This document shows positions 49,001-64,000 of a stretch of DNA of 64,000 nucleotides, in pieces; within the stretch, counting starts at the first letter, position 1, and each line of letters opens with the position of its first letter. Position numbers and translations under genes: made by a program. Source of the stretch: a bacterium (GTDB lineage: Bacteria > UBA8248). The DNA lies in the NCBI GenBank assembly GCA_965203325.1, contig OZ241875.1, positions 2,720,001-2,784,000 of the forward strand, written 5' to 3'. The notes below the pieces were generated by a model. That model was not told the DNA's origin. It was given only the letters and a program-made list of their open reading frames with translations, and did not search any database.

Positions 49001-49208
49001 CCCCTACAACGGCTTGTGGCGCGGGTCGTTCTACAATGGGAACACGGATGATACCGCCACGGCGGATGTCGATGAAAGCCTGGTGGCGCCGGGTTCCGTC
49101 GCCGGAAGCTTCGGCGTGACCGGCACCGACGACATGGGTACAGCGGATGACGACACTGACGACGTCACCCGGAGCTACGTGGGCGCGTTCGGCGCTCACA
49201 AGCAGTAA
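46002..49208 (+). CDS. Large surface lipoprotein with Ala-rich helical stalk and C-terminal transferrin-binding-protein-like beta-barrel
   Basis: Lipobox LAGC followed by poly-Gly; long Ala/Glu/Asp-rich stretch; C-terminus YLAFGVWL, GTATYEGSATGVY, W.GSFY, PGSVAGSFG, VGAFGA; RBS AGGAGG. Confidence 0.8.
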   Translation: MMFKDKHIHKLYAFALAAVFALVLAGCGGGGGGSAAAPPDEPPPMPTPEERCTADGGRYNADGSCTSAADLEAERVAAEAAALTAAKNAAAAAAMAANTALDAAKATLTGIADIQDSDPLHYSLAEGALDDARRAKQAADAANAKAQAADNSGDAEMYQAQAEAEQAKAEAAMTLAAGFAQEVKDAKAEADRLVQEELDRQEQERIAQENAMKISDAQEAARLASVAASEAASAAATALETLQGDADATAHQLVTATTAKIAADAAAQDAADAYAAAMGADTVEAAESARDDAQMAQMVAEAQQGIIDGFNMANQDDRDDDEVENQRMADVAAARSAAMQSYMDADADATKADEVATAAETAAPGSPGAMAAREAATAARNAADAAKAAHDAIMDDMTKDQAEAERDKAATAAGNANDSYMTAKRNNDAVQTAKLAGEEQQRVRDIADAKDAAEDAMDAAKTASDAAGDAADDAETAMDNAKAALDRARAARTDSTTAEAEYEKAKDAATAARNAADEADTAYMAAKAAHDGIDDDGEASDAEDAQETAETKQREAETAQGTADTQKTAAETAEYAAETAAGTHVLGLLKGANAVGVMDNPATDANEQAAAVMAVATAIGNAAGAPSGTTPEDADNNSATTGATVSDSGVTATWPADGFNPDGSVNNDAEDNPIPGMLSITVTRTSGSNLVFRTEAAEEDDATTTDVDETVVTATDIGGLGDFMHGYSISDRGTHAIVFTDKQQGTPAVAEVVAITAQTLVNNSGGTVTDLGTRSGTGFTGVTYYASGVTVGDDTDMALAFTGTLTCPASATTGCTATENADGTITIEGYTFTGSRAARAAVTAVSAAENNDYLAFGVWLQEDSDAGTEGNQPAFAAFFGGGSPTAAASFNVAITGTATYEGSATGVYTEGTKVDYFEGDATLTANFGTAPEDGSADTVTGTITGMIDNIVAGGVSMSDVIHLNDGAGGNNISAEGGFSGDARMGERTVEIVDSVATVTYPYNGLWRGSFYNGNTDDTATADVDESLVAPGSVAGSFGVTGTDDMGTADDDTDDVTRSYVGAFGAHKQ

Positions 49209-49705: not shown

Positions 49706-51092
49706 GAGTTACTGTCAAATGTTGTGTATGGCCGTCTTGAGTTCAGCGGCCTCCCTGCCGGTTTGTTTTTCGTTCATCCCATCGATGAACCTCACGTCGG
49801 TGATCACGTCGGCCAGCTGGCGCAAGCCGCCCAGCCGCCCCCATCGCTTCTCGGCGCTCATGGCGAGTTGGTGAATCAGGCTCAGCGCCGTCTTCTCGCT
49901 CAGGCAGTTCCTCGTCTTCGCCGTTCGCAGCCGGATCGTGGCGAAGGTCGACTCGATCGGGTTCGTCGTCCGAATGCTCCGCCAGTGCGCCGCCGGGAAG
50001 TCGTAGAAGGCGAACAACTCCTCGCGGTCCCTCGACAGGCACGCGGCGGCCTTGGGATACTTCGCCTCCCAGGTGGCGAGAAAGCGTTCGAACGCCTTCT
50101 CCGCATGCGCGCGGGTCTCCGCCCTCCACATCTCATACAGCATCGGCCTCGCTTCGACCTGAGCGCTCTTGGGCAGCTTGTCGAGAACGTTCGCCGTCTT
50201 GTGCACCCAGCAGCGCTGCGCCCGGGTCCCGGGGTACACCTCGGCCAGCGCCGACCACAACCCCAGCCCCCCGTCGCCCACGGCGAGCTTCGCCGCCTTC
50301 ACGCCCCGCTCCCGCAGGCGCAACAAAACCGCCTTCCAGCTCTCCTTCGATTCACGGAACCCCGCCTCCAGGGCCAGGAAGCGCTTGCGGCCTCGCGCGT
50401 CGCAGCCCACGACCACCAGAAGGCAGCGCCGCTCCCCGCTGCGAACGTTCACGTAGATGCCGTCCGCCCACAGATACGCGAACTCCTCCCCGTGCCACGC
50501 CCGCTCGCGCCACTGCGCGTACTCGCGCTCCCAGCCCTCCTTGAGCCGCGAGACGCTCGCCGGGGACAAGCCCCCCACCGACTCGCCGAACAGCGCCGTG
50601 AGCGCCTCGCCGAAGTCGTTCGTCGATACCCCCTTCAGGTACAGCCACGGTATCACCGCTTCCACGCGCCGCGTCTTGCGCAGATACGGCGGCAGCAACT
50701 CCGAGCGGAAACGCCGCCCCGACCCCGACCTGTCCCGCGTCCGGGGCACCTGGACACGCACCGGACCCACTCCCGTCAACACCTCCCGCGACGGCAGATA
50801 CCCGTTGCGAACCACCGCGCGGCGGCCCTGCGCGTCACGATCGCCCGCATATTCTTCGAGAAACGCCGCCAACTCCGCTTCCACCGCCTGGCGGATGATT
50901 CGTCGCGCGCCCGCGCGCAACAGTTCGCTCAACTCGTCCCGTAGGGCTGGATTCTTCATGGGAATCGTCGTATCTTCTCTCATGGTGGCGCATCTCCTTG
51001 TGCTGAATGACCGGGCTATTTGGCAAACCCTATTTCAGCAGGATGCGCCGCCTTCTTCAATTCAGCCCATACACAAGTTTTGAGCGTAACTC
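49706..51092 (-). mobile_element. IS256-family insertion sequence (1387 bp)
   Basis: Imperfect TIRs GAGTTACTGTCAAATGTTGTGTATGG and GAGTTACGCTCAAAACTTGTGTATGG; 9-bp TSD TTGAAAAAG at 49697-49705 and 51093-51101. Confidence 0.95.
49715..50983 (-). CDS. IS256 family (Mutator-like) transposase, intact
   Basis: RNGY, VPRTRDR, YLKGVST, LWADG, ESKESW, VGDG, QRCWVH, RTTNPIES. Confidence 0.95.
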   Translation of the reverse strand: MREDTTIPMKNPALRDELSELLRAGARRIIRQAVEAELAAFLEEYAGDRDAQGRRAVVRNGYLPSREVLTGVGPVRVQVPRTRDRSGSGRRFRSELLPPYLRKTRRVEAVIPWLYLKGVSTNDFGEALTALFGESVGGLSPASVSRLKEGWEREYAQWRERAWHGEEFAYLWADGIYVNVRSGERRCLLVVVGCDARGRKRFLALEAGFRESKESWKAVLLRLRERGVKAAKLAVGDGGLGLWSALAEVYPGTRAQRCWVHKTANVLDKLPKSAQVEARPMLYEMWRAETRAHAEKAFERFLATWEAKYPKAAACLSRDREELFAFYDFPAAHWRSIRTTNPIESTFATIRLRTAKTRNCLSEKTALSLIHQLAMSAEKRWGRLGGLRQLADVITDVRFIDGMNEKQTGREAAELKTAIHNI

Positions 51093-51922: not shown

Positions 51923-52111
51923 AAGTTTTTCGCCGCCCCCCGCATTTGCCCGCAACAGCCCGCATTTCCTCCCGCACCGCATCACGCCGGCAAAGCCTCA
52001 TTCATCAATCGGCTTTGACCCCCGCAATTGCGCGCATTCGCGCACTCGCCCGGGGCGTCCGCCCGGCCCGGCACAAGGCATTGATGATACGGGCGTTCGG
52101 GTAGCGAGCGG

Positions 52112-52498
52112 CTAGCCGGGGCGCAGGACGCTCCTGGCCTTCTCCCCTTCGGGCGTCACGGCGAGCACCTCGAGACTCGGCCGCGCGGGAGACCTCGTGA
52201 GCAGAAGCTCCACGGGCTCATCCAGCGCCATGATCTCGTGCACCTCGCCGGGGCGGAACTGCACCAGATCGCCGGGCGCGGCTTCCAGTATCTCCCCCTC
52301 CACGGCCAACCGCAGCCCGCCCTTCAAGAGATAGAGGAACTGCTCGTCATGGTGGTAATGAGGGTTGGAATGGCCCCCCGCCTCCATGCGGAAATAACCG
52401 ATGGTGGTATGGGCGCCGTCGACCCAGGCGGCGTCTGCGGTCACGTAGTCGGCGGCTTTCCCCTGGTTCTGCGCGGCGAGATTTCTGTAGATCGGCAT
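52112..52498 (-). CDS. Cupin-2 domain protein
   Basis: PHYHHDEQFLYLLKG and PGD...F.PGEVH metal-binding motifs; RBS AGGAG; divergent from the paralogue array. Confidence 0.85.
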   Translation of the reverse strand: MPIYRNLAAQNQGKAADYVTADAAWVDGAHTTIGYFRMEAGGHSNPHYHHDEQFLYLLKGGLRLAVEGEILEAAPGDLVQFRPGEVHEIMALDEPVELLLTRSPARPSLEVLAVTPEGEKARSVLRPG

Positions 52499-52649
52499 GG
52501 AATAAACTCCTGTAGTTGAGGCGTTTACGGAAGATGGAGCGTCAGACGCATTCTAACGACACCGACTCGCAATCTGTCCAGCGCCCATGTATATTTGAGC
52601 GGCATGAGGAGTGCATCCCTCACTTCACAAAGTAATTCGGAGGCATTTC

Positions 52650-53684
52650 GTGAGCACTTCTCCCGCGGATGAGTTCGAGTATTTCTTCGACAAGCCCTGG
52701 TCGGACGGTCTTCCGGTCATCCCCCCGACGGAGGAGCGCCTGGGCCTCATGCTGGCGGGCACGAGCCGCGACCCGGACGAAGTGCTGGGCGACGTGCCCC
52801 CGTTATTGGCGCAGGCGGACGTTCGGACCATCGCCGCTCATGCCGTCATGGCCGGGTGCAAGCCGGCGTATATGCCCGTCCTCATCGGCGCCGTGGAGGC
52901 GATTCTGGAGGAAAAGTTCAACGTGGGCGGCGTGCAGGCGACGCTCTCCTGCGCGGCCCCTCTTTTGATCGTGAACGGCCCATACGCGGGGGAAATCGGC
53001 CTGCACGGCGGGCTCGGCTGTTTCGGCCCCGGGAATCGCGCCAACGCGACGATCGGGCGCGCCATCAGGCTTTTGCTCCTGAACATCGGCGGCGGAATAC
53101 CGGGCATCACCTCGATGAGCACGTTCTCTCAGCCGGGCAGGTTCACGTACTGCATCGCAGAGAATGAAGCGGAAAGCCCCTGGGAGTCTTTCGCGCAGAC
53201 GCAGGGTTTCGATGCGGGGGAGGATGTCGTCACCGCCGTGCACGTGGAAGGCCCCGTCATGTCCTGGGACGACGTGAGCGACGACCCAGAGCGCATGTTG
53301 CCCTCCATTGCGGACACCATGTCGCATCTGGGTTCGTGGAACTGCTGGGCCAACACGGATCTCGTGGTGGCGATGAGCCCGCAGCAGGCCGCGATTTGCG
53401 CCAAAAAGGGGTATTCAAAGGCGGATGTTCATGGGCGCCTTTGCGAAATCGCGGGCCGCACGGTGGGCGAACTCAAGACGGGGGGTCATTACCGGGAGAA
53501 CCGCATCAGGGACTTCCCGTTCCCCGTCGATCTGGATGATGACGATGCGTTCGTTCCGACGATCAAAGAGGCCGGGAGGCTGCTCCTGATCGTGGCGGGC
53601 GGGGTTCCGGGGCCGATTACGGCCGTCATGCACGGCTGGAACGGCAGCAGCCGCTCCGTCTCCCGCGCATTTGAGTCGTCGTGA
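52650..53684 (+). CDS. Uncharacterised WSDGLP-motif protein, paralogue 1 (UGSC-partner type)
   Basis: DEFE.FF.K.WSDGLPV.PPT, AVMAGC.P, IVNGP, GC.GPG.RAN.TIGRA.RL, C..EN...SPW, LIVAGG; GTG start after GGAGG. Confidence 0.85.
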   Translation: MSTSPADEFEYFFDKPWSDGLPVIPPTEERLGLMLAGTSRDPDEVLGDVPPLLAQADVRTIAAHAVMAGCKPAYMPVLIGAVEAILEEKFNVGGVQATLSCAAPLLIVNGPYAGEIGLHGGLGCFGPGNRANATIGRAIRLLLLNIGGGIPGITSMSTFSQPGRFTYCIAENEAESPWESFAQTQGFDAGEDVVTAVHVEGPVMSWDDVSDDPERMLPSIADTMSHLGSWNCWANTDLVVAMSPQQAAICAKKGYSKADVHGRLCEIAGRTVGELKTGGHYRENRIRDFPFPVDLDDDDAFVPTIKEAGRLLLIVAGGVPGPITAVMHGWNGSSRSVSRAFESS

Positions 53685-53707
53685 TACCCATATATATCAA
53701 GGGGTGA

Positions 53708-54742
53708 ATGGTTTTGAACGATCCTCAAGATGAATTCGAGTTTTTCCTGGAAAAACCCTGGTCGGACGGCCTGCCCGTCGTCACCCCGACCGAAGAGCGC
53801 ATCGAGCGCATGCTCTCGGGCACGAAGAGAAGCCCTGCCGAGGTCATCGGTCAGGTTCCCCCCGCCATGGGGGAGGCCACGGTCCACAGCGTGGCGGTGC
53901 ATGCCGTGATGGCGGGCTGCAAACCCGAATACCTGCCGGTCGTTCTCGGCGCCGCCTCCCTCATGCTTCGCGATGAATTCAACATGAACGGCGTGCAGGG
54001 CACGATGCACGGCGTGGCGCCCCTGATGATCGTGAACGGCCCGTATTCCGGGGAAATCGGCATTCACGGGGGCAATGGCTGTTTCGGCCCCGGCTTCAGG
54101 GCCAACGCCTCCATCGGCCGCGCGATACGCCTGATTTTGATGAACCTGGGCGGGGGCATCCCGGGCGTTTCTTCCATGACGATTTTCGGCACGCCGCTGC
54201 GCTATACCGCGTGCGTCACGGAGAACCTCCAGTTTCACCCCTGGGAGACGCTTGCCGAATCGAGGGGATACGGGGCGGAGGAGAACGTGATCACCATGGC
54301 CATGGTGGAAAGCCCGCGCCTGACCTTCGATGACGTCAGCGAGGAGCCCGGGAGGCTGCTCCGGGGAATCGCCGATGCGATGACGGGTCTGGGCTCCTGG
54401 AACATGCACGCGCCCAGAACCGACATGGTCGTCGCCATGAATCCCCAGCATGCGAAGATTTGCTCCGGTGGCGGCCTCACGCGCGCGGACGTGCACCGGC
54501 GGCTGTGTGAGCTGGCCGGCCACAAGGTGAAGGACCTGAAACAAGGCGGAAACTGGCGGCGTGAGCGCGCGCTGGCGATGTATATCCACACGGACCCCGA
54601 TGATGATGAGTTTTTCGTTCCCGTCATCAAGGACCCCCGTGACCTCCATTTGATCGTAGCGGGCGGCTGGGGATCGGGCAGTGCGGTCTGTCACGGGTGG
54701 AGCGGCGGCAGCCGCGCCGTTCATGGCGTGTATGAAGTGTAA
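53708..54742 (+). CDS. WSDGLP-motif protein, paralogue 2
   Basis: Same motif set as paralogue 1 over the full length. Confidence 0.87.
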   Translation: MVLNDPQDEFEFFLEKPWSDGLPVVTPTEERIERMLSGTKRSPAEVIGQVPPAMGEATVHSVAVHAVMAGCKPEYLPVVLGAASLMLRDEFNMNGVQGTMHGVAPLMIVNGPYSGEIGIHGGNGCFGPGFRANASIGRAIRLILMNLGGGIPGVSSMTIFGTPLRYTACVTENLQFHPWETLAESRGYGAEENVITMAMVESPRLTFDDVSEEPGRLLRGIADAMTGLGSWNMHAPRTDMVVAMNPQHAKICSGGGLTRADVHRRLCELAGHKVKDLKQGGNWRRERALAMYIHTDPDDDEFFVPVIKDPRDLHLIVAGGWGSGSAVCHGWSGGSRAVHGVYEV

Positions 54743-54783
54743 TGCCGGATTTCCCGCATTCCGTCTGGTAAAGTCATTTTCCA

Positions 54784-55800
54784 ATGGATGAATTCGAGTT
54801 TTTCTTTCAAAAACCCTGGTCGGACGGCCTGCCGGTAATCCCACCTACCCAAGAGCGAATAACCGCCATGTTTTCGGGTAGCAGGCTTGAAACCTCGGAA
54901 ATTATCGGTTTGGTGCCGCCCCTCATGGGAGAGGCGAGCGCCGAGGCGGTTGCCGCGCACGCCGTGATGGCGGGGTGTGAGCCTTCGTATTTGCCCCTTG
55001 TTATTGCAGGGCTTAGAGCGCTCCTTGCGCCGAAACTCAACTTGAACGGCGTACAGGGCACCATGCACAGCGCGGCCCCCCTGATCATCGTGAACGGACC
55101 CTATGCGAAAAAAATCGGCCTGCACGGCGGCACAGGGTGCTTCGGGCCGGGTTTTCGGGCGAATGCGACGATTGGACGCGCCATCAGGTTAATACTCATG
55201 AACCTGGGCGGCGGTGTGCCGGTTTCCGCCTCGATGAGCACGTTCGGCTCGCCTGCCAGATATACGTTTTGCATCGCCGAGAACGAAGCGGAAAGCCCCT
55301 GGGAGCCGTTGTCCGTCACGAGGGGATTTCAGCAGGATGAAGATGTCGTTACCGCCGTGATGACGGAAGCGCCGCAAGGCTATATCGACGATTATTCAAA
55401 AGAGCCGGAATCTTTTTTCGTGGGTCTGGCGGATAAAATATCCACACTGGGTTCCCTGAATATATGGCTGAAAACCCAGGTGGTCGTTGCTTTGGGTCCG
55501 GATCATGCGCGCATGTGCGCGGACGCGGGTCTGGATAAAAAAGATGTTCATCGCCGAATCATGGAACTCGCGCGCAGACCCCTGGGAGAGCTGAAAAAAT
55601 CGGGCTATTGGCGTGAGGAGATGGCAGCCAAGTGGCCATTTGACGTGGATCTGCAGGATAATTCGTATCTGGTACCGGCGATCAAGGATGAAGACGATCT
55701 GATTCTTCTCGTCGCAGGGGGTACGCCCGGCCCGGTGACTGCCGTCATGCCCGGCTGGGTGGATGGCAGCGAGGCGGTCTCGACGGATTATCAACCATAA
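54784..55800 (+). CDS. WSDGLP-motif protein, paralogue 3
   Basis: Same motif set over the full length. Confidence 0.87.
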   Translation: MDEFEFFFQKPWSDGLPVIPPTQERITAMFSGSRLETSEIIGLVPPLMGEASAEAVAAHAVMAGCEPSYLPLVIAGLRALLAPKLNLNGVQGTMHSAAPLIIVNGPYAKKIGLHGGTGCFGPGFRANATIGRAIRLILMNLGGGVPVSASMSTFGSPARYTFCIAENEAESPWEPLSVTRGFQQDEDVVTAVMTEAPQGYIDDYSKEPESFFVGLADKISTLGSLNIWLKTQVVVALGPDHARMCADAGLDKKDVHRRIMELARRPLGELKKSGYWREEMAAKWPFDVDLQDNSYLVPAIKDEDDLILLVAGGTPGPVTAVMPGWVDGSEAVSTDYQP

Positions 55801-55835
55801 GTCTTTCTGTCAGCTTTGCTTGTGAGGATGAACGT

Positions 55836-56855
55836 ATGGATGAGTTTGAGTTTTTCTTTGATAAAGAATGGTCGGACGGCCTGCCTGTCGTGACGCCCAC
55901 GGAAGAGAGAATCGGTTTGATGCTCTCGGGAACGACGAGGGAGCCGGGCGAAGCGCTCGGCCACGTAGCTCCGGCAGGAGGTGAACTCAGCATTCAAAGC
56001 GTGGCGGCCCATGCCGTGATGGCGGGTTGCAAGCCCGAATACATGCCGGTGTTGATTGCCGGGTTGGAAGCGCTTCTCGATGAGCGTTTCAACGTGAACC
56101 TGATTCAGGCCACAACGAGCGCGGGCGCTCCTTTTTTGTTGGTCAATGGCCCCTACGCCAGTGAAATCGGGCTACACGGCGGTGTGGGCTGTATGGGACC
56201 CGGTTTTCGCGCGAATTTGACCATTGGCCGCGCCGTGAGGCTCATTATGATGAACGTGGGAGGAGGTATTCCCGGGGTCACCTGTCTCGGCGGTTTTGGC
56301 GGCCCCTGGCGAAACACGTATTGCATCATGGAGAACGAGGAGGAATCTCCCTGGGAGTCATATGCGGAGTCCAAAGGGTTTTCTAAAAGCGATAACGTGG
56401 TGACCATGATTCCTCTCGAAGGGCCCGTGCAGGTATGGGACGATGCGAGCCTGACGCCCGACCGGCTTCTCACGACGGTTGCCGATATGATGTCCGCCTT
56501 GGGTGGGCCCAATATGTATCGCCAAGCGGATATGGCGGTTGTCCTGGGTGCGCAGCATGCGCATCTTTGCGCTGACGCCGGAATGACTCGCAGTGATGTC
56601 CATCAAAGACTATTGGAAATGGGTGGGCGCACCATCGGGGATATCAAGCGCGGCGGCATATGGCGAGGCGAAAAAGGCGCGGATCGCTGGCCGTTTCCCG
56701 TGGATGTAAATGATGACGATTTTTTCGTGCCAGCGGTTGGCGATCCCGACGATCTTCATTTAATCGTCGCGGGAAGCAGGGGTTCGCCCTCCAGTATGGT
56801 CATGCACGGAATCACCGTGGCGTGTCGGGCCGTGAAAAAAAAATTCAACTTGTAA
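55836..56855 (+). CDS. WSDGLP-motif protein, paralogue 4
   Basis: Same motif set over the full length. Confidence 0.87.
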   Translation: MDEFEFFFDKEWSDGLPVVTPTEERIGLMLSGTTREPGEALGHVAPAGGELSIQSVAAHAVMAGCKPEYMPVLIAGLEALLDERFNVNLIQATTSAGAPFLLVNGPYASEIGLHGGVGCMGPGFRANLTIGRAVRLIMMNVGGGIPGVTCLGGFGGPWRNTYCIMENEEESPWESYAESKGFSKSDNVVTMIPLEGPVQVWDDASLTPDRLLTTVADMMSALGGPNMYRQADMAVVLGAQHAHLCADAGMTRSDVHQRLLEMGGRTIGDIKRGGIWRGEKGADRWPFPVDVNDDDFFVPAVGDPDDLHLIVAGSRGSPSSMVMHGITVACRAVKKKFNL

Positions 56856-56964
56856 ATTTGTGTAGATATGCGGGCTGTAATGCCAGGATGGCGTGGCCGA
56901 AATAGCTGTGCTCCTTGCTAAATAAATCTTTGTGAAGCCAGAAATGTTTTGGTGTTTTCTATAG

Positions 56965-56996
56965 AAAAAGCCCCGGCAAAATGCCGGGGCTTTTTT
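56965..56996. terminator. Bidirectional intrinsic terminator
   Basis: AAAAAGCCCCGGCA-AAA-TGCCGGGGCTTTTTT between convergent genes. Confidence 0.88.
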
Positions 56997-57013
56997 GTGT
57001 GATTGGTGTTTAG

Positions 57014-59275
57014 CTAATGGCCGTTGCTTTTTCCATTTTTCTTCATGACCGCCCAGCAGACGCGCTCGGGCGTGATGGGCAGGTCGTAGACTTCCGTGCC
57101 TATCGCATCGTTGATGGCGAGGGCAACGGCGGCCGGCGCATTGTTGCACGGCGGCTCGCCGACGCCGCGTGCGCCGTATGGGCCTGCGCCTTCTCCACAT
57201 TCGAGAACAACAGACTCAAACTCGCCGATATCCGATGAAGTGGGAATCAGATACTCATGAAAGCTCTGTGATCGGCAGTCCCCTTCCACCATGGTGATTT
57301 CTTCGTGGAGCGCATAGCCAATTCCCATTACCGCGCCGCCTTCGAATTGCCCTTCCACGCTTTGAGGGTTCAACGCTCGTCCGACGTCATGGGAAGCGAC
57401 GTGCTTCAAGAGATTCACTTCGCCGGTTTCGATGTCGACTTCCACTTCGCTTGCGTGAACGCCAAAGGTGTAGTCCGACCATCCGCCCATGCCGTTCATG
57501 TATCGCTCCGGATTTTCATATTCATGTCCGGGCATGTTGTAACCATGCGTGCAATGCAGTGCCTCACCCATTTTTTTGGCTTCGCCAGCCGCAGCACCGA
57601 TGCCAACTCTTCTCTCGGGAGCGGAGGCTACCCATGCCTCCCCGCTTCCTACGCGAATATCCTCTTCAGCAGCCTCGAGCAACGAAGCGGCGCCTTTGGT
57701 CACGGCTTTCCGAACCTCATCTGCGGCAAGTCGAACGGCGTGCCCCGCCATGAGTGTTTGACGGGAGCCTGCCGTGATTCCCGAGAGCGGTGTTGTGGCG
57801 GAATCTGATAGACGAGTGGATACCTGATCGAGCCTGAGCCCCAGGGTTTCAGCCGTGATGCTTTGAAGCGTAGCGCCCTGGCCGGCGCCTATGTCCGGCG
57901 CGCTCACGCGAACTACTGCGCTGCCGTCCGGCTCGAGGTGGACCGCCGCATTCGCGTCGTCATTCGGCCTTCCGTAGCCGGTGATGTTCGCCGCCGCCGC
58001 ACGCCCAATGCGTTTCCCTGGGCCTGGTTCTGTGGGTTCGCCCAAGGCCTGAAGCGCACTGTCGAGGCATCCTTCCAGATTCGGTTCGTATGGTATTTTC
58101 TGTCCGGTCGGCAGTTCCTGGTTTTTCTGGATGAAATTTTTGCGCCTGAATTCGTATTTATCCATCCCGATGGCGTCTGCAACCAGGTTCATTTGGGTCT
58201 CATATGCGAAGCAAACCTGGTTCGACCCCACACCACGCATCGCGTTGGTGATGGGATTGTTGGTGAGATAGCCGTGCGCGCGTATTTTAGCGTTGGGCAC
58301 ATCGTAGGGGCCTGCAGCGATGCACATGGCGCCCAGGAGGAATAGATTGGATTTGTACGGATAGGCTCCAGCGTCACCCACGATATCCGCTTCTACGGCA
58401 AGAATTTTCCCGTCCTTGGTCGCTCCTGTTTTGTACCTCATATAGAAAGGATGTTTTTTCGAGGTGTTTCGGATGCCGTGCTCGCGGCCCAACACCATTA
58501 TGGCCGGTCTTTGCGTATGCCAGGTGAGTAATGCCAGGTAAGGTTCCACGGTCAGCATGCCCTTGGCGCCGAATCCGCCGCCGACATATGTGCCGAGGTG
58601 GCGGACGCGGCTATGCGAGATTCCTAAAATCGCCGCAATGGCGCGATAGTATTCAATTAGCTGTGTGCCGACGCGGATGGTGATGACGCCGTCTTCCTCC
58701 ATCCATGAAGTACCGGAAGCGGGTTCCAGGAAGGCGTGTTCAGCGAGTTGCGTGGTATATGTTTTCTCAATCACCACGTCGGCTTCGTCAAACGCTCTTT
58801 TTATGTCTCCACGTGTAGCTTCAAAGTCACACGCTTGTCGCTTCTCGGCGTTAGTTTCATCGTGACGCGTTGTCCACACGCCCTCTTCCGACTCGATTTC
58901 CAATTCGATCGCAGCTATCGCGGCATCAAGCGCTTCTCTGTTTTCGGCACCTACGATGGCGAGGGCATCTCCAGTAAATTCGATCTTATCTTCCACCAGC
59001 ACCGGCTGATGGGGCAGGCCCGGCGTCCCGGAGCCGAATCGCGCGTTTGTGCCTGGAATGTCCTTTGCGGTCAGAATGGCGGCTACGCCTGGAATTTTTT
59101 CGGCTTTAGAAGTGTCGAGTTTTTTGAGGCGGCCTACGGGGACGGGCGTAAACAATACGCCGCACTGCAAAGCGCCTGCGGGGATCGCGTCTTCTCCGTA
59201 GGGCATAGAGCCATCTGCTTTCGGAATGGCGTCGTATCGAACATTCGACTTGCCGATGATATCGTAATCGGCCAT
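57014..59275 (-). CDS. Xanthine dehydrogenase/CO dehydrogenase family molybdopterin-binding subunit
   Basis: EHAFLEP, VGGGFGAK, GPY, AMRGVG, DIGAG, AGSRQT, DVGRALNP..VEGQ..G, GARGVGEP; start MADYD after AAGGAG. Confidence 0.92.
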   Translation of the reverse strand: MADYDIIGKSNVRYDAIPKADGSMPYGEDAIPAGALQCGVLFTPVPVGRLKKLDTSKAEKIPGVAAILTAKDIPGTNARFGSGTPGLPHQPVLVEDKIEFTGDALAIVGAENREALDAAIAAIELEIESEEGVWTTRHDETNAEKRQACDFEATRGDIKRAFDEADVVIEKTYTTQLAEHAFLEPASGTSWMEEDGVITIRVGTQLIEYYRAIAAILGISHSRVRHLGTYVGGGFGAKGMLTVEPYLALLTWHTQRPAIMVLGREHGIRNTSKKHPFYMRYKTGATKDGKILAVEADIVGDAGAYPYKSNLFLLGAMCIAAGPYDVPNAKIRAHGYLTNNPITNAMRGVGSNQVCFAYETQMNLVADAIGMDKYEFRRKNFIQKNQELPTGQKIPYEPNLEGCLDSALQALGEPTEPGPGKRIGRAAAANITGYGRPNDDANAAVHLEPDGSAVVRVSAPDIGAGQGATLQSITAETLGLRLDQVSTRLSDSATTPLSGITAGSRQTLMAGHAVRLAADEVRKAVTKGAASLLEAAEEDIRVGSGEAWVASAPERRVGIGAAAGEAKKMGEALHCTHGYNMPGHEYENPERYMNGMGGWSDYTFGVHASEVEVDIETGEVNLLKHVASHDVGRALNPQSVEGQFEGGAVMGIGYALHEEITMVEGDCRSQSFHEYLIPTSSDIGEFESVVLECGEGAGPYGARGVGEPPCNNAPAAVALAINDAIGTEVYDLPITPERVCWAVMKKNGKSNGH

Positions 59276-59469
59276 TTGTCTGCTCCTTAAGGTAAGAGGT
59301 TTTCCGTAAATTAGGCTTGATTTTGCCAAAATTCGGCGAATCTGAGAAGCGGAAAAAACATCATTCGCATTTTCATCGGGAAATCGAATGGGCTGATATC
59401 GTAGACAATGAATGAATTGCGGGATATGATTTAGTCTCGGTTGAGTTCACATATCATTTGGAGAAAACC

Positions 59470-60000
59470 ATGGCGAACGGAATGGGATTCATCGATCCGA
59501 CGGCGGGAGGATCGGCCGCGCGAATCGAGCTTGCGCAACGGCCCGGCGATCTTTCGGGAAAGGTGGTGGGGCTCCTCGATAACACCAAGGAACAAGCGGA
59601 TATCATTTTGGAAACCTTGGGCAATGCACTTCGTGAGCAATACGACGTGGCCAGAGTCATTTCGAGGCGAAAAGAGCATTACTCGAAGCCTGCTACGGAT
59701 GAAATGATCGAAGAAATGGCCCAGGAGGTGGATGTGGCGATAGCCGCATTGGGAGGCTGAGGCTCCTGCACGTTGTGCAGTGTGCACGACACGGTTGAAT
59801 TTGAAAAACGGGGCATTCCTTCAACGACCATTATTACTGAGGCCTTCAAGAACGCGGCGGACTTTCAATTCCGCGGCAAGGGCATGGAAGGGCACCCTTA
59901 TATTGAGTTGCCTCACCCGGTCAGCAATCTACAGCCTGATGAAATGAGAGACACGACGCTCAAGTTTGTTGAAGAAGTGGCCAGCCATCTGAAAAGCTGA
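59470..60000 (+). CDS. UGSC-family selenoprotein (Sec at TGA 59758-59760), 176 aa
   Basis: ORFs 59458-59760 and 59773-60000 share a frame; readthrough gives ALGG-U-GSCTLCSVHD..EFEKRGIP...LPHP. N-terminal GLLDNTK motif; hairpin 3' of the TGA. Confidence 0.9.
59761..59790 (+). promoter_or_regulatory. Putative bacterial SECIS element
   Basis: Stem GTTGTGCA/TGCACGAC (59772-79/59783-90, one G-U pair) with loop GTG starting 20 nt after the TGA. Confidence 0.75.
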
Positions 60001-60039
60001 TTCGAATTGAGTTGAAAAGATATTTCCCAGGAGGGGCAC

Positions 60040-60822
60040 GTGCGCGAATTTGAAACATTATCCTATACGGAAGAAGATGGATTGGCGGTAGTGAAGTTCA
60101 ACCGTCCGGAGAGTCTGAACGCAATCAGCTTCAAGATGGCGGAAGAATTCGTGGAATTAACGCGAACTTTGGCCGACGCGCAAAATGTTCGCGTTGTGAT
60201 ACTCACCGGCGAGGGACGTGGTTTCAGCACGGGCCGAGACCTGAAAGAAAGCACTACGCATACGAAGGAGATGGCCGATCAATATCAGCGCTATGTGATG
60301 TCGGCGACATCGTTATGGGAACGCTTGCCCATGCCCACCATCGCCGCCATCAACGGTCATACGTTCGGCTGGGGTGTGGAAATTACCCTGGTATGCGATA
60401 TCAGACTCGCCGCGGAAGAAGCCACTCTTTGTTTTCCGGAATGCAGTTTGGGTATTTTCCCCGGAGCTGGTGGCGTGGTCTGGCTTCAAAGGGTCATGCC
60501 GGCCGGTCAGGCGAAAGAGTTGGTTTTCACGAGCAAGCGAATCGATGGCAAGGAGGCCGAGCGCATCGGTTTGGTGAACAAAGCGCATCCGCTGGATGTG
60601 TTGATGGATGAAGCCACTTCCATCGCGGAGAGGATCAGAGACAATGGCCCATTGGGTGTTCGTGGCGCGAAAAAAGTGATTGATCAGACACTCGATATGC
60701 CGCTCAGTCAGGCTATCGAGTTTTCCAACGCCCACAGGTTGCCATTGAATCACACCAAGGATTTCGCCGAGGCGCTGCAAGCGTTCAAAGAGAAGAGGAA
60801 ACCTGTTTTTACCGGAGAATAA
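60040..60822 (+). CDS. Enoyl-CoA hydratase/isomerase family protein
   Basis: NRPESLNA, GFSTGRDL, AINGHTFGWGVE, CD.R, FPE..LGIFPGAGG; both Glu positions present; GTG start after GGAGG. Confidence 0.92.
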   Translation: MREFETLSYTEEDGLAVVKFNRPESLNAISFKMAEEFVELTRTLADAQNVRVVILTGEGRGFSTGRDLKESTTHTKEMADQYQRYVMSATSLWERLPMPTIAAINGHTFGWGVEITLVCDIRLAAEEATLCFPECSLGIFPGAGGVVWLQRVMPAGQAKELVFTSKRIDGKEAERIGLVNKAHPLDVLMDEATSIAERIRDNGPLGVRGAKKVIDQTLDMPLSQAIEFSNAHRLPLNHTKDFAEALQAFKEKRKPVFTGE

Positions 60823-60850
60823 AAAGACGCCTAATCTTACTTGTAGTATC

Positions 60851-60879
60851 AAGCCTGTCCCTTAGGGGACAGGCTTTTT
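60851..60879 (+). terminator. Putative intrinsic terminator
   Basis: AAGCCTGTCCC-TTAG-GGGACAGGCTT followed by TTT. Confidence 0.7.
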
Positions 60880-60896
60880 GTTCATTGTGACTAAAT

Positions 60897-61598
60897 ATGA
60901 ATAGTGACCTCCTTCACATGCATAGCGAATCTCATATCGCGATCATCACCGTGAATCGGCCGGAAGCGCGAAATGCGTTCAACACATCATTGATGGAAGC
61001 CATGTGTAGGGAGATGGATGAAATTCAAAAGATGTCAGATATTAGAGTGCTTATCGTTACGGGAGCGGGAAGTTCTTTTTCTGCAGGACGCGATCTTAAG
61101 GAAAGCGCCACCCATACGGAAGAACAGGCAAAGCGCTTCATGTTATTGGGCGAGAGATGGAGCACAGCCCTTCGTGAGCTGCCCATCCCGACCATAGCAG
61201 CGGTAAACGGACCCGCTTTCGGATGGGGGATGGTGTTGATGCTCTCATGTGATATTCGTGTTGTGGTGGACGACGCTGTTTTGGGATATCCGGAGACTGC
61301 GCTGGGAGTATTTCCTGGAGGAGACGCCACAGTTCGCCTGACGCGGCAGATTTTTGTTCCTTCTGCAAAAGACTTGGTGCTCACTGGCAGAAGATTTGAT
61401 GCACAAGAGGGCCATTGCTTAGGATTGGTGAATCGCGTCACATTGAAAAGAGACTTGATGGCACAAGTCCAAAAGCTGGCCGATGAAATAGCCCAACATC
61501 CGCTGGAAAGACTAAAGGCGATGAAATCAACTTTTTTGAAAGTTGAAGCGATGCCGCGCTTTGGGCATTTGTCGATAGCCGAGAAAATCGACCGATGA
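60897..61598 (+). CDS. Enoyl-CoA hydratase/isomerase family protein (second paralogue, shorter C-terminus)
   Basis: NRPEARNA, FSAGRDL, AVNGPAFGWG, SCDIR, YPETALGVFPG. Confidence 0.88.
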   Translation: MNSDLLHMHSESHIAIITVNRPEARNAFNTSLMEAMCREMDEIQKMSDIRVLIVTGAGSSFSAGRDLKESATHTEEQAKRFMLLGERWSTALRELPIPTIAAVNGPAFGWGMVLMLSCDIRVVVDDAVLGYPETALGVFPGGDATVRLTRQIFVPSAKDLVLTGRRFDAQEGHCLGLVNRVTLKRDLMAQVQKLADEIAQHPLERLKAMKSTFLKVEAMPRFGHLSIAEKIDR

Positions 61599-61978
61599 AA
61601 GTCAGGGAGTGTTTTTTGCAAGCGGTAGCGATTGTTGACTCATATGAAGACGCCAGAGATACCTGGGCGGCCATGAACAGGCTTAACGCGCCCTGGGCGG
61701 CGGTTTTTGATGGTACGCACCTGGTTGGCATAGTAAACAAACAAGACCTTGATGCGTTTGTTCGTGTGCCCGAAGTTTTTCAGAACGTTGGTGAGGTGGC
61801 CCAAACGGACATACCTGCCAGGCGAGGGATATCACTATCCCCGAACGCGGATTTGAACGAGGCTGTTCTTCAGCTTGAGATGGTTGGCGCGGATGCCGCT
61901 TTTGTCGAGGGCATTGGCAGGCCGCCTGGCGTCATGGAAATGGAAGCGGCCAATCGCGTATTGTCTTGTTCTTCATGA
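61595..61978 (+). CDS. Putative CBS-domain protein
   Basis: MKVRE, ...AM, VFDG.HLVGIV...DL, V.EV, L.EA...L pattern; ATGA overlap with the previous gene. Confidence 0.6.
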   Translation: MKVRECFLQAVAIVDSYEDARDTWAAMNRLNAPWAAVFDGTHLVGIVNKQDLDAFVRVPEVFQNVGEVAQTDIPARRGISLSPNADLNEAVLQLEMVGADAAFVEGIGRPPGVMEMEAANRVLSCSS

Positions 61979-62051
61979 TACGCTTTTGTTTTCCTTAAAG
62001 TGATCGATCATTTGCCTCACTTTCAAGGGGCAATTGACGGGAGGAACGTCC

Positions 62052-63248
62052 ATGGAATTCACGTTGAATGAAGAGCAAATACGGATTCAGCAGATAGCCA
62101 GAAAATTTTCCGATGAAGAATTGGCCCCGGTGGCTCCAGAGCGCGATCGTATTCAGAACTGGGAAGAGCGCATGCCGTGGGATCTCACGGAAAAAGCAAG
62201 CGCTTTGGGTTTAAGGCAGCTCCCTTATCCCAAAGAATACGGTGGTATGGGAGCTGATGTGCTTTCGTGCTGTCTGGCGGGGGAGGAGCTTGCAGCGGGA
62301 GATCTGGGTTTTGCGGTGAACTTGGATCAGACATGGAAACTGTCCCATATATTCGAAAAAGTAGAACCTGAAGTCAGAGATCCATGGATAAAACGCTTAT
62401 GTGAAGAACCAAGATTCCTGGCTGCGATTTCCATGACGGAAGAAGGAGCGGGAACCGACCATCAGGGATATTATGACGATCCCTCCATTGCGCTGTTTAC
62501 GCGCGCAGAGAAAGAAGGCGGCAAATGGATCCTCAACGGGAAAAAACGCTATGTCAGCAATGGCCCTGTTGCGTCGTTGTACGTTTTGGCGGCAAGAACC
62601 GATCTCAGCAAAAACTTGAGGGAAGGCTTAACGGGCTTTCTGGTTCCAAGAGAGACCCCCGGCATATCGATAGGCGAAGTGCATGAAAAAATTGGCCAGC
62701 GTCTTTCGATGAATTCTGAAATTTTCTATGAAGACGTCGAGATTCCCGAGAACCACATCATCCTGGGTGAGGGAAACATGTTCGAAATCAGGGGTAATCT
62801 TCTGGCGATGGGAAAACCGGAAGCAGCCGCAACGGCCCTGGGTGTCGGGCGCGCTGCATTCGAGAAATCACTTGTCTACAGCCGAGAACGCGTCCAGGGC
62901 GGCAAGCCCATTGGTCAACACCAGGCGATTGAAACCATGCTCGCCGATATGGCGATGAATCTTGACATTGCGCGCACGTACATTTGGCGCACCGCTTGGG
63001 CGGTGGATCATCAAAAACCTTATGATTTCACGCAAGGATGGAAATGCAAAGTTTTCGCATCTGAAGTCGCTTTTGATTGTGCGAGACTGGGCATGGAGGT
63101 ATTCGGCGGTGCGGGCATCATGCACGATGCTCCTATGGAGAAATACCTTCGCGATGCCAGTACGTTCTTGCACTCAGACGGCACGAATCAAATTCTGCGG
63201 TTAAGAACCGGGCAAGCTTATGTGAAAGGAGTGGCCACGGCGTTTTAG
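62052..63248 (+). CDS. Acyl-CoA dehydrogenase family protein
   Basis: YPKEYGGMG, MTEEGAGTD, WILNGKK.YVSNG, KIGQR, ERVQGGKPI, FGGAG, EKYLRDA. Confidence 0.93.
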   Translation: MEFTLNEEQIRIQQIARKFSDEELAPVAPERDRIQNWEERMPWDLTEKASALGLRQLPYPKEYGGMGADVLSCCLAGEELAAGDLGFAVNLDQTWKLSHIFEKVEPEVRDPWIKRLCEEPRFLAAISMTEEGAGTDHQGYYDDPSIALFTRAEKEGGKWILNGKKRYVSNGPVASLYVLAARTDLSKNLREGLTGFLVPRETPGISIGEVHEKIGQRLSMNSEIFYEDVEIPENHIILGEGNMFEIRGNLLAMGKPEAAATALGVGRAAFEKSLVYSRERVQGGKPIGQHQAIETMLADMAMNLDIARTYIWRTAWAVDHQKPYDFTQGWKCKVFASEVAFDCARLGMEVFGGAGIMHDAPMEKYLRDASTFLHSDGTNQILRLRTGQAYVKGVATAF

Positions 63249-63271
63249 TGGCATGAAAAGGAGAATTTCAG

Positions 63272-63823
63272 ATGGCGCGCCTGGCAGATAAGTGGCGACA
63301 GGTTGAATTGTTCCAGCAAGACGGGGAATCGCTGGAACATCATGTTGCCGAGTGGCTCCAGAAGGTGCGTGCGGAATTCTCCGTGTTTGTATCGGATGAA
63401 GGTATTGCGGAAATAAGAATGCTGAATGGCGTAGAAAAACCTCTCGTGGCAAATCATGCGAGGGAGCAATCAACACCGTTGAGTCGTCGAGCTTCAAAAG
63501 AGATAGAAGAATATCTAAGCGGCGCGCGAAAAAGCTTCAAACTGAAAACGGACCTCTCTGCACTCACGCCTTTTATGGAAAAAGTGCTGAGGAAGACGGA
63601 AGAAATTTCTTATGGTGAGACGCGCTCCTATGGCTGGGTCGCGAAGGAAATCGGAAACCCGAAAGGATCACGCGCCGTCGGCCAGGCGCTTCATAGAAAT
63701 CCCGTTCCGCTTATTATACCATGACATAGAGTCATCGCGGGCTCGGGCGAGCTCGGTGGATTCGCAAGCAGCGTATCTTTGAAGTTGGCGCTGTTGGTCC
63801 ATGAGATGAATCATAAAGATTAG
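63272..63823 (+). CDS. ogt: Methylated-DNA--protein-cysteine methyltransferase, predicted selenocysteine form (TGA 63722-63724)
   Basis: YG.TRSYG..A..IG.P...RAVG.A...NPVPLIIP-TGA-HRVIAGSGELGGF......K..LL.HE; the TGA occupies the Cys of the PCHRV motif and homology continues to TAG at 63823. Confidence 0.88.
63725..63759 (+). promoter_or_regulatory. Putative bacterial SECIS element
   Basis: Stem CGGGCTC/GAGCTCG (63738-44/63749-55, one G-U pair) with loop GGGC starting 21 nt after the TGA. Confidence 0.72.
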
Positions 63824-63871
63824 GGTATCTGGATTTCGCTTGGAGGCATCCAAATTCATGGGGGAGTAAAG

Positions 63872-64000
63872 ATGTCTAAGAAGATGAATGATTTCATCGA
63901 CCAGGTACGCGAAATTGTAAAAACAGGCGGTACCGAAGAAGAAGTAACGGTTCGCGTCGTGATGGCCCTTGAACCAATTTTGGATGAGCCGAACCTGTTG
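63872..64000 (+). CDS. 5' fragment of a gene, possibly cysteine-dioxygenase-like
   Basis: GGGGAG RBS then MSKKMNDFIDQVREIVKTGGTEEEVTVRVVMALEPILDEPNLL, open to the window edge. The family guess rests only on an N-terminal helical pattern. Confidence 0.45.
   Translation, partial: MSKKMNDFIDQVREIVKTGGTEEEVTVRVVMALEPILDEPNLL

Follow-up and report, generated by a model that had tools for sequence, protein, structure and literature searches.

The locus at 52,112 to 63,823 of the window (the whole 64,000-nt stretch of DNA that was analysed) is best read, by a modest margin of confidence, as one copy of a widespread two-part redox module with lineage-specific neighbours. In this module a UGSC-family selenoprotein is paired with a partner protein of the WSDGLP/MAGC family, and here a single UGSC would act in trans with four partner paralogues. 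The pairing itself is not new, as it was already noticed in 2008. The features of the locus are as follows:

52112..52498, minus strand: cupin-domain protein, 128 aa (Cupin_2, E 3.5e-14), divergent from the array
52611..53684, plus strand: partner paralogue 1, GTG start, alternative GTG at 52650
53708..54742, plus strand: partner paralogue 2, WSDGLP/MAGC family member
54784..55800, plus strand: partner paralogue 3, modelled (pLDDT 90.8, pTM 0.90)
55836..56855, plus strand: partner paralogue 4, WSDGLP/MAGC family member
57014..59329, minus strand: XDH-family molybdopterin-binding large subunit, 771 aa, convergent with the array and divergent from UGSC
59402..59430, plus strand: sigma-70-like promoter match upstream of UGSC, 10/12, consensus match only
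59470..60000, plus strand: UGSC-family selenoprotein, 176 aa, Sec codon TGA at 59758-59760, motif GGUGSC
59770..59790, plus strand: SECIS-like hairpin, 8-bp stem at 59772-59790, loop GUG, beginning 12 nt past the UGA
60040..60822, plus strand: enoyl-CoA hydratase/isomerase family protein (ECH_1, E 3.3e-60), 39 bp past UGSC
60851..60876, plus strand: terminator-like hairpin between the crotonase genes, 11-bp stem, T tail, pattern match only
60897..61598, plus strand: second, shorter crotonase, 233 aa (ECH_1, E 2.8e-43, profile 3-205 of 251)
61595..61978, plus strand: 127-aa protein, no family assigned, synteny conserved
62034..63248, plus strand: acyl-CoA dehydrogenase (ACAD) family protein, 404 aa, three ACAD domains, under all NCBIfam equivalog cut-offs
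63272..63823, plus strand: Ogt/MGMT-family selenoprotein, TGA at 63722-63724, IPUHRV

The UGSC gene, whose start was corrected to the ATG at 59470, encodes a protein scoring 150.5 bits against NF041046 (cut-off 125) and 175.3 bits against PF24696 (cut-off 25), and the TGA-interrupted UGSC protein pointed out in the earlier note is thus present. A TGA stands at the UGSC motif in all 23 orthologue rows, and the 21 nt of the SECIS-like hairpin were unchanged in 23/23 of these rows (17 distinct sequences), while flanking synonymous sites vary; the energy z-score of the 64-nt stretch holding the hairpin was 0.13, which is not significant. SelB is encoded in the host genome (392.8 bits, cut-off 242), and each of the eight UGSC genes of this genome has one in-frame TGA. 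Among 78 UGSC matches, the codon at the Sec position was TGA in 59 and TGC in 1, with the motif not located in the other 18. Sigma-70-like promoter matches and terminator-like hairpins occurred in the region about as often as expected (6 found against 6.4 expected, and 12 against 13.7, respectively).

Upstream lie the four adjacent full-length paralogues of about 340 aa that had been recognized from the sequence (52611-56855, plus strand). They are 338-357 aa long and share 51-56% identity among them (55-56% to paralogue 1), and the WSDGLP and MAGC motifs are invariant across all four. None matched any Pfam or NCBIfam model; when 41 partner proteins were searched against Pfam at E up to 5, only UGSC (two fused rows) and single chance-level matches were found. 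The partner family comprises 7,939 sequence clusters without a Pfam or NCBIfam model, and paralogue 3 is 93% identical to its top database protein. Zhang and Gladyshev noticed a UGSC/Unknown_1 fusion in 2008 (PMC2398784), and in the supplementary sequences of that study the fused Unknown_1 domain carries W[ST]DGLP and VMAGC motifs, the same as those of the four window paralogues. Fused relatives were recovered both with paralogue 3 and with profile A2, and by sequence the window paralogues belong to the Unknown_1 family. Unlike that reported fusion, the window has the two parts on separate genes, with four partner genes to a single UGSC gene, which is displaced by 2.6 kb.

To place this arrangement, 80 diverse partner loci were considered, of which 68 contain a UGSC gene. 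A same-strand UGSC lies within 300 bp of the partner in 64/80 and within 1 kb in 67/80, with the UGSC gene downstream in 38 loci and upstream in 30; the remaining 12 have no UGSC in the DNA covered, three of them ending at a contig edge. The association that the earlier note had described is therefore real and very strong, with the enrichment of UGSC genes near partner homologues that it had set as a test, and it is already in print as a fusion. The host genome holds 15 partner genes and eight UGSC genes; six of the latter adjoin a partner gene, one is fused to it in frame and the eighth is that of the window. No UGSC was found inside 8 kb of three of the 15 partner genes.

On the gene map of the window, the paralogues neither adjoin the UGSC gene nor are fused with it. 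Between the end of the nearest one and the UGSC start lie 2,614 bp, and the UGSC gene lies outside the paralogues' operon, separated by the convergent Mo gene on the opposite strand. The link is seen in descent instead. Where a partner shares 62-76% identity with a window paralogue, the accompanying UGSC is 59-74% identical to that of the window, compared with 29-44% in the remaining loci. A UGSC gene follows the orthologues of paralogue 2 (64-76% identical; L028, L030, L031 and L035) after 34-103 bp and those of paralogue 4 (65-67%; L034 and L038) after 68-131 bp; these UGSCs share 59-72% and 65% identity, respectively, with that of the window. In the tree, these loci split into a paralogue-2 clade (support 100) and a paralogue-4 clade (99). 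In these other bacteria, either orthologue is found as a single gene together with UGSC. Since orthologues of paralogues 2 and 4 adjoin orthologues of the window UGSC, the link in the window is one of descent, not position, and by these sequence comparisons one UGSC probably serves the whole array in this genome. The earlier proposal of one Sec subunit for several partners fits these matching subfamilies.

How the paralogues relate to each other was approached by structure prediction. The complex of paralogues 3 and 4 scored 0.93, against 0.00 for the best of three controls, with 320 contacts, agreement between runs in at least 98% of contacts and partner pLDDT of at least 90; the score mark used is met by 116/157 solved complexes and 2/215 mismatched pairs, and is roughly valid here, where our own alignments were used. 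The predicted interface comprises residues 13-19, 63-64, 116-129 and 150-162 of both chains, and the partner is accordingly predicted to dimerise via its signature motifs. Such a complex could mean that one hetero-oligomeric enzyme is assembled from all four paralogues, instead of each being an alternative specificity subunit, consistent with the presence of the four-gene array in 15/15 same-genus genomes and with six tandem partner-partner fusions among the 150 best representatives of the 7,939 clusters, one of which (P0122) retains both motif sets. However, because the chains are homologues, the prediction does not separate a heterodimer from a homodimer, and homodimer-forming homologous chains would give the same result. 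Moreover, paralogues 2 and 4 have single orthologues with UGSC elsewhere, and the related locus L027, whose three partner copies cluster with paralogue 1 (SH-aLRT 89), has three copies, not four. We thus consider a single hetero-oligomer rather unlikely, though a serious contender.

The same survey of the 150 best representatives bears on what the partner does with UGSC. Of the 71 other representatives of at least 400 aa, 49 bear a UGSC piece (whole in 21, the post-Sec half only in 24 and the pre-Sec half only in 4), three bear an AhpC-TSA/Redoxin module, one a thioredoxin-reductase (TrxR)-like module and one a ferredoxin-thioredoxin-reductase (FTR) catalytic chain, and 17 nothing. Seven more TrxR-like fusions were found among 32 long relatives, one examined having a CADCDG motif. 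All identifiable partner fusions are thus with thiol/selenol redox modules. As separate genes, TrxRs are rare beside the UGSC-partner pair (1/80 diverse loci within 2 kb). In 16 of the 30 full-length fused forms examined there is no Cys at the Sec position, so in these the UGSC-like domain cannot act as a redox centre and may instead have a structural or regulatory role.

These Cys-less forms suit a different reading, in which the partner is a self-sufficient non-redox enzyme of hydratase, isomerase, lyase or cyclic-amide hydrolase type and UGSC an accessory, namely an activator, a repair reductase for active-site cysteines, or a structural or regulatory subunit. The loci and host copies with no nearby UGSC (12/80 and 3/15) agree with this, as do the structural comparisons of the modelled partner, whose only whole-chain leads are non-redox. 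These are class I fumarate hydratase (Foldseek E 7.5e-4, TM 0.31/0.35; 7xky_A, Z 4.1, 175 aligned, rmsd 5.1) and Toblerone-fold cyclic amide hydrolases (Z 4.5-4.6, 156-165 aligned; 5hy4_D, Z 4.5 over 165); for the C-terminal domain, the likeness is to chorismate mutase/YjgF (Z 6.1, 82 aligned, rmsd 2.6). However, every match lies under Z 8, with sequence identity of 7-12%, the long alignments having rmsd 5.1-6.1, and these likenesses may merely reflect a common arrangement. As modelled, the partner fold has no clear known relative and gives no functional anchor. The match to a standalone enzyme that the earlier note had named as grounds for refutation did not appear, the best hit being the Z 6.1 one over a single sub-domain. 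In addition, the fusions other than to UGSC are all thiol-redox where identifiable, and the retention of Sec (59 TGA against 1 TGC) would be costly for a mere accessory. A non-redox partner is therefore held to be unlikely.

The UGSC side was examined in a model of the natural UGSC-partner fusion of the host genome (pTM 0.90, pLDDT 88.7). In this model, Sec lies just past strand 91-97, where helix 100-115 starts, and the structural matches of the UGSC domain are flavodoxin-like alpha/beta proteins (Z 9.4-11.8, with 459 chains at Z of at least 8); thioredoxin is absent among the 50 matches listed of these 459 chains. On the matches listed, the model lends no support to the thioredoxin-like fold guessed for UGSC in 2008 (PMC2398784).

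The other genes of the locus were then considered. The lone XDH-type Mo subunit, two crotonases, acyl-CoA dehydrogenase and divergent cupin described from the sequence are all present as placed. The Mo subunit has hammerhead (PF01315), MoCoBD_1 (PF02738) and MoCoBD_2 (PF20256) domains and is under all NCBIfam equivalog cut-offs (best pucD, 412.8 against 783.65 bits). No Fe-S subunit (Fer2_2) gene is found in the window, all four genomic Fer2_2 matches being elsewhere, and the host genome has 10 MoCoBD_1 genes. The 127-aa protein at 61595-61978 gave no NCBIfam match and none at 1e-5; the label CBS-like does not hold for it, the CBS match being sub-threshold (E 0.0064, 17.3 against 24 bits). The second TGA-interrupted gene proved to be an Ogt/MGMT gene, in which Sec replaces the active-site Cys of P-C-H-R-V; the part before the TGA scores 57.8 bits against TIGR00589 (cut-off 46.4), the TGA is kept in 18/18 related loci, and Ogt/MGMT is tabulated as a known selenoprotein family (PMC13188914, PMC9312934).

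Whether these genes belong to the module is evenly balanced in our judgement, the alternative being that the locus is not one system and that the Mo enzyme, cupin, CoA enzymes and MGMT are kept by shared descent and functionally unrelated to UGSC and its partner. The arrangement is restricted to this lineage, with the positions of both the cupin and the Mo gene kept in 15/15 same-genus loci, L026 and L027, and a Mo subunit lies within 8 kb in only 2/80 diverse loci. Across phyla, the 80 diverse loci are not enriched in crotonase or ACAD genes close to the pair, the density of these genes not rising toward it. In Betaproteobacteria, TctC genes instead come after the orthologous UGSC-partner pairs. 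GC3 is 0.80 in the paralogues versus 0.54-0.61 in the Mo, crotonase and ACAD genes, and a DNA-repair-type gene closes the same gene row. Against complete independence, UGSC and the first crotonase, 39 bp apart, keep their order in each of the 17 related loci (L011-L027), even where identity falls to 72% and 68%, and a CoA-transferase III, crotonase or ACAD gene directly flanks 4/8 host UGSC genes (65 such genes in 4.39 Mb). These data indicate that the Mo and CoA enzymes, which the earlier note had taken as parts of the system, are lineage-specific neighbours and not general parts of the module.

The CoA enzymes also enter a further possibility, that UGSC acts as in glycine or proline reductase, a GrdB/PrdB-type subunit cleaving a C-N or C-S bond of a partner-activated substrate, with products passing to the CoA enzymes. 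GrdB and PrdB, working with GrdE and PrdA, are UxxC selenoproteins with a substrate-specific larger partner, several paralogous sets per genome and a thiol-type electron supply. The present pair is alike in its UxxC selenoprotein (U-G-S-C), its bigger partner, its several paralogous sets per genome and, as proposed, its thiol-type electron supply. Residues 72-165 of UGSC match GrdB positions 325-415 (TIGR01917; E 4.5e-4, 19.2 bits), and, besides the genes flanking host UGSCs, CoA-transferase III genes lie within 2 kb in 8/80 diverse loci, with a mild rise toward the pair (3.2, 2.7, 2.1 and 1.2 genes per 100 kb). However, 19.2 bits compares with a cut-off of 602.2, and PF24696 was the sole Pfam match of 7/7 UGSC proteins at E up to 1, so UGSC was rejected as a GrdB/PrdB family member. 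A GrdE/PrdA-type proprotein was likewise rejected for the partner, the 41 sequences having no visible kinship to known proproteins, and Cys65, which lies between two helices in the paralogue 3 model, would not be at the expected self-cleavage site. No GrdA-, GrdC- or GrdD-like genes were found among the scanned ORFs of the locus. Hence the analogy drawn earlier stands for the motif and one weak match but not for the partner, and we regard this mechanism as improbable, the least likely of the readings considered.

Further parallels are offered by thioredoxin/thioredoxin-reductase-dependent reductases such as methionine sulfoxide, arsenate and PAPS reductases. In these, as proposed here, a cysteine enzyme is recharged by a small dithiol protein (here a selenothiol), and the partner is naturally fused to TrxR-like, Redoxin and FTR modules. 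Different from them, the UGSC carrier is flavodoxin-like by its model and nearly always has Sec, and the partner fold has no clear solved relative.

Returning to the two-part redox module, we propose that UGSC is a small flavodoxin-like alpha/beta protein with Sec-Gly-Ser-Cys placed where a strand ends and a helix begins, and that the partner, present here as four old tandem paralogues, is most likely the catalytic, substrate-binding subunit. The partner dimer would form two composite sites at the subunit interface from its signature motifs, in which the DGLP loop of one chain would face MAGC and GPGxRAN of the other, with the conserved residues Cys65, Cys119 and Cys163 beside them. We infer physical contact of UGSC with the paralogues and a redox role, in which its selenol/thiol pair may pass reducing equivalents to the partner, or attack or resolve an enzyme-bound intermediate, before being recharged by thioredoxin-type donors. 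The single UGSC of the matching subfamily would act in trans on the four paralogues, and possibly also on the three further unlinked copies of the genome; the four may differ in substrate or combine as heterodimers. More tentatively, and with less than even confidence, UGSC and the WSDGLP/MAGC partner may represent a superfamily of enzymes, so far undescribed, that depend on selenium, are linked to thioredoxin, and combine a new catalytic fold with composite active sites at the dimer interface. This would be a modular set in which one UGSC type serves up to seven partner paralogues of differing specificity (15 partners, eight UGSC genes), breaking down small organic acids or amines reductively for entry into CoA-dependent pathways.

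UGSC is an abundant selenoprotein that has been an orphan for 20 years, and the locus gives a testable handle on it. With its near-obligate partner, a family of 7,939 clusters that lacks a model, this orphan becomes a testable two-protein enzyme. To this the locus adds a natural case in which a single UGSC would have to serve several partners in trans, and a predicted dimer that would place the signature motifs in a shared site, while the CoA enzymes and the lone Mo subunit can steer substrate screens in this lineage.

The locus at 52112-63823 contains the elements listed in the earlier note, namely four paralogues, an XDH-type Mo subunit, a TGA-bearing UGSC gene, two crotonases, an acyl-CoA dehydrogenase (ACAD), a second TGA-bearing gene and a minus-strand cupin gene. 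Only the label "CBS-like" on the 127-codon gene was not confirmed, the CBS match (E 0.0064) being under the cut-off. The genes are arranged as follows.

First in the region 52112-63823, minus strand: cupin gene
After the cupin gene, plus strand: four tandem partner genes (paralogues 1-4) of 338-357 codons each
Between paralogue 4 and UGSC, minus strand: XDH-family molybdopterin subunit gene (Mo gene)
From 59470, plus strand: six-gene row comprising UGSC, a pair of crotonase-family genes, the 127-codon gene (no family assigned), ACAD and Ogt/MGMT

Paralogues 2-4 share 55-56% identity with paralogue 1, and the stretches WSDGLP, HAVMAGC, GxGCxGPGxRAN and C-x-x-EN are invariant in all four; Pfam and NCBIfam scans of the four returned no family match. 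A "UGSC/Unknown_1" fusion was reported by Zhang and Gladyshev 2008 (PMC2398784), and the Unknown_1 supplementary sequences available from that paper contain W[ST]DGLP and VMAGC, indicating that the partner family is the Unknown_1 domain. At 90% clustering the family accounts for 7,619 of 8,000 scored candidates, and at 50% clustering for 7,939 cluster representatives, 5,293 of them at E <=1e-10 and 2,478 at E <=1e-30. The UGSC gene starts with ATG at 59470 just after a GGAGA box, reads G-G-U-G-S-C over the TGA at 59758-59760, scores above the NF041046 cut-off (150.5 vs 125 bits) and also passes PF24696.

The window's own genome (4.39 Mb, one contig) encodes 15 partner genes and eight UGSC genes. 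Six of the eight UGSC genes have a partner gene at a distance of at most 300 bp and the eighth is that of the window; at locus L004, UGSC is fused in frame to the partner domain and carries a UGGC motif. Around three of the 15 partner genes (L008-L010), no UGSC gene was found up to a distance of 8 kb. We then scored UGSC adjacency with a family profile across species-representative genomes, analysing the best 80 of 615 relatives, which span many bacterial phyla and include two archaea. A UGSC gene was found in 68 of these 80 loci, on the same strand within 300 bp in 64 and within 1 kb in 67, in either order; three of the 12 loci lacking UGSC end at a contig edge. The association of WSDGLP/MAGC proteins with UGSC, named in the earlier note, is right and partly in print as the fusion (PMC2398784); the own-genome, 80-locus and fusion counts confirm it.

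In the window itself, UGSC and the paralogues do not form one operon: paralogue 4 ends at 56855 and UGSC begins only after the opposite-strand Mo gene and a promoter-like site. Comparison of subfamilies nevertheless links them. In seven loci (L027, L028, L030, L031, L034, L035 and L038), a partner 62-76% identical to a window paralogue is accompanied by a UGSC 59-74% identical to the window's, at a distance of 34-131 bp, or of 3,899 bp in L027, which is arranged as in the window. The UGSC of all remaining loci shows 29-44% identity to the window's, and the other seven UGSC genes of the genome 31-37%; in this comparison, one L055 UGSC was matched to the wrong neighbouring partner gene. A tree of 18 of the 80 loci (the ten closest to the window and eight hand-picked, with row ownL007 disregarded for its wrong reading frame) placed orthologues of paralogue 2 (64-76% identity) and of paralogue 4 (65-67% identity) in clades with support of 100 and 99, respectively, indicating that two array members have single-copy orthologues directly paired with the window's UGSC type. 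This pairing offers the best available support for the proposal that one Sec subunit may serve several partners. Since the paralogues are at most 56% identical mutually, yet up to 76% identical to betaproteobacterial orthologues, the array is, judged by sequence comparison, old. The array and all other genes of the locus are kept in 15 of 15 same-genus genomes, and the locus is largely retained in L027 and in L026, which belongs to a second genus.

Several further features of the region were recorded. An IS256/Mutator-family transposase gene (49715-50983, minus strand; E 3e-72) lies 1.1 kb upstream of the cupin gene, and transposase or integrase genes also adjoin the own-genome partner genes of L003 and L008. 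A 1,068-codon ORF at 46002-49208 (plus strand) has no Pfam match, and long ORFs on the opposite strand overlap it. Across 52000-64000, GC content drops from 0.63 to 0.50, and paralogues 1 and 2 have a GC3 of 0.80-0.81, compared with 0.54-0.61 for the Mo, ACAD and crotonase genes; in the relatives L015 and L016, GC3 is 0.92-0.94 in the Mo gene and paralogue 4 alike. It is possible that the right half of the locus was recombined or replaced in the window genome. In three same-genus genomes, an additional 2.4-3.7 kb of ORFs with lower GC3 separates paralogue 4 from the Mo gene, at these positions:

L015, 11700-13899: extra ORFs
L016, 6262-8895: extra ORFs
L023, 6601-9620: extra ORFs

The genome encodes SelB (392.8 bits, cut-off 242), and each of its eight UGSC matches contains a single in-frame TGA. 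Fold prediction placed a candidate hairpin in UGSC, with an 8-bp stem and a GUG loop, 12 bases past the UGA. While the folding energy of the 64-nt stretch with this hairpin is ordinary (z 0.13), its 21 bases are invariant in 23 of 23 orthologous UGSC genes (17 distinct sequences, including five betaproteobacterial ones), and synonymous sites on either side vary in the alignment printout of these orthologues. Among 78 UGSC matches in the diverse loci, the Sec codon is TGA in 59 and TGC in one, the motif being unlocated by pattern in 18. The variants U-G-S-S, without the resolving Cys, and U-G-G-C occur in L003 (8117-8719) of the own genome and in four matches of the 80 loci; they bear on the need for the second Cys of UxxC. 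The second TGA-bearing gene, Ogt/MGMT (63272-63823), has its TGA at 63722-63724 within I-P-U-H-R-V, where Sec replaces the alkyl-acceptor cysteine, and retains it in 18 of 18 related loci. This selenoprotein family is already tabulated in PMC13188914 and PMC9312934; the position of its gene at the end of the UGSC row is constant.

Fusions were surveyed among the best 150 of the 7,939 cluster representatives. Six are partner-partner tandems; another 71 reach a length of at least 400 residues, and 49 of these 71 contain a UGSC piece: the whole domain in 21, the post-Sec half alone at the N-terminus in 24 and the pre-Sec half alone at the C-terminus in four. Such halves are expected where gene prediction breaks off or resumes at the in-frame TGA of a fused selenoprotein. 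The remaining long proteins comprise three fusions to AhpC-TSA/Redoxin, one to a thioredoxin-reductase (TrxR)-like domain, one to a ferredoxin-thioredoxin reductase catalytic chain and 17 with an extra part without recognisable domain. A separate search for long relatives (n=32) gave seven more TrxR-like fusions, nine with UGSC, one weak aminotransferase match and 15 without domain; one TrxR fusion read end to end contains CADCDG. Sixteen of 30 fused forms read have no Cys at the Sec position. A search for longer UGSC relatives yielded one protein among 1,298 candidates, weak evidence in either direction. In the representative P0205, the partner domain is fused to FeThRed_B (E 2.2e-21), the beta chain of ferredoxin-thioredoxin reductase that bears its catalytic function, which hints at ferredoxin as an electron source for some family members.

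Sequence searches of solved structures found no relative of the partner (best E 0.061) or of UGSC (best E 0.056), and the ESM Atlas clusters were unannotated except for the one at rank 30 (score 0.89), 16% of whose members carry PF24696. Paralogue 3 was modelled confidently (pLDDT 90.8, pTM 0.90). Its single Foldseek match at E <=1e-3 was the class I fumarate hydratase alpha subunit 7xky_A (E 7.5e-4, TM 0.31/0.35), and a fold search of all representatives gave a best Z of 5.9 over 78 residues, with none reaching 8. On re-alignment, residues 196-325 matched chorismate mutase (Z 6.1, 82 residues, rmsd 2.6), and Toblerone-fold cyclic amide hydrolases gave Z 4.5-4.6 over 156-165 residues. Thus no known standalone enzyme was matched in the structural similarity search, which only barely covered the N-terminal half (1-195). 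Pyruvoyl self-cleavage at Gly64-Cys65 of the partner was considered and set aside as unsupported. The natural own-genome UGSC-partner fusion was modelled as one body (pLDDT 88.7, pTM 0.90); its UGSC domain is predicted to be a generic flavodoxin-like alpha/beta sandwich (Z <=11.8, 459 chains at Z >=8; Foldseek matches to flavodoxin, WrbA, receiver and TIR domains), with Sec directly after a strand, at a helix start.

The complex prediction for paralogues 3 and 4 scored 0.93 vs 0.00 for the best of three controls, with 320 contacts, at least 98% contact agreement between runs and partner pLDDT of at least 90; of 157 solved complexes, 116 reach the mark for this score, and of 215 mismatched pairs, 2 do so, counts that hold roughly here because our own alignments were used. 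The predicted interface is two-fold symmetric and includes signature segments 13-19, 63-64, 116-129 and 150-162, the closest pairs being the DGLP loop of one chain with A63/G64 and R125/A128/T129/R132 of the other. Together with the natural tandem fusions, this prediction suggests that the partner works as a dimer with composite sites, a homodimer and a heterodimer not being distinguished by it.

Neighbours of the own-genome UGSC/partner pairs vary, including a peptide ABC transporter, two luciferase-like oxidoreductases, an FAD oxidoreductase together with a sugar-type ABC transporter, a TRAP transporter, EamA and TetR. Four of the eight UGSC genes directly adjoin a gene for a crotonase, an ACAD or a CoA-transferase III, and a fifth has a crotonase gene at 2.7 kb; with 65 such genes in 4.39 Mb, this is by rough reckoning far above chance. 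Across the 80 loci, crotonase and ACAD enrichment near the pair was rejected, the densities staying level across distance bins at 0.9-1.5 and 0-0.9 genes per 100 kb, respectively, and CoA-transferase III showed a mild rise towards the pair (within 2 kb in eight loci). Recurrent neighbours were luciferase-like genes (11 loci), TctC receptors (13 loci, exclusively betaproteobacterial), PrpD (four loci) and flavin reductases (four loci); a TrxR gene neighbours the pair in one locus, the TrxR link being seen as fusions. A Mo subunit lies within 8 kb in two of the 80 loci. The Mo enzyme, crotonase and ACAD, proposed earlier as parts of the system, are on these counts lineage-specific additions. The window genome has ten XDH-type Mo large-subunit genes vs four Fer2_2 Fe-S small-subunit genes, and most of these large subunits, the window's included, have no adjoining electron-transfer subunit. 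Only the pair of UGSC and the first crotonase, with 39 bp between them, is constant in 17 of 17 related loci; a strong terminator-like hairpin (pattern match) follows the pair.

Earlier publications already describe the UGSC family, the MGMT selenoprotein and the fusion of UGSC to Unknown_1. Within a limited search of the open-access literature, which leaves absence from print unproven, we found no function assigned to UGSC and no description of the near-obligate adjacency, the redox-module fusions or the dimer. This analysis adds a predicted dimer, a count of fusion partners by type, the match of subfamilies by which the displaced UGSC is linked to two of the paralogues, and a negative outcome for Mo, crotonase and ACAD genes as parts of the module in general. 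The suggested parallel with glycine and proline reductases stays an analogy, neither the selenoprotein family nor the partner proving to be a member. The most economical model is that UGSC and partner constitute a thiol/selenol-driven enzyme, in which the partner would be the dimeric, cysteine-bearing catalytic component and UGSC a small Sec carrier serving it, recharged from thioredoxin-type donors. Two observations count against a strictly redox role of UGSC: some fused forms have no Cys where Sec would stand, and some partner genes lack a UGSC. As a reasonable first guess from the neighbouring genes, the thiol/selenol-driven enzyme may act on organic acids or their CoA esters.
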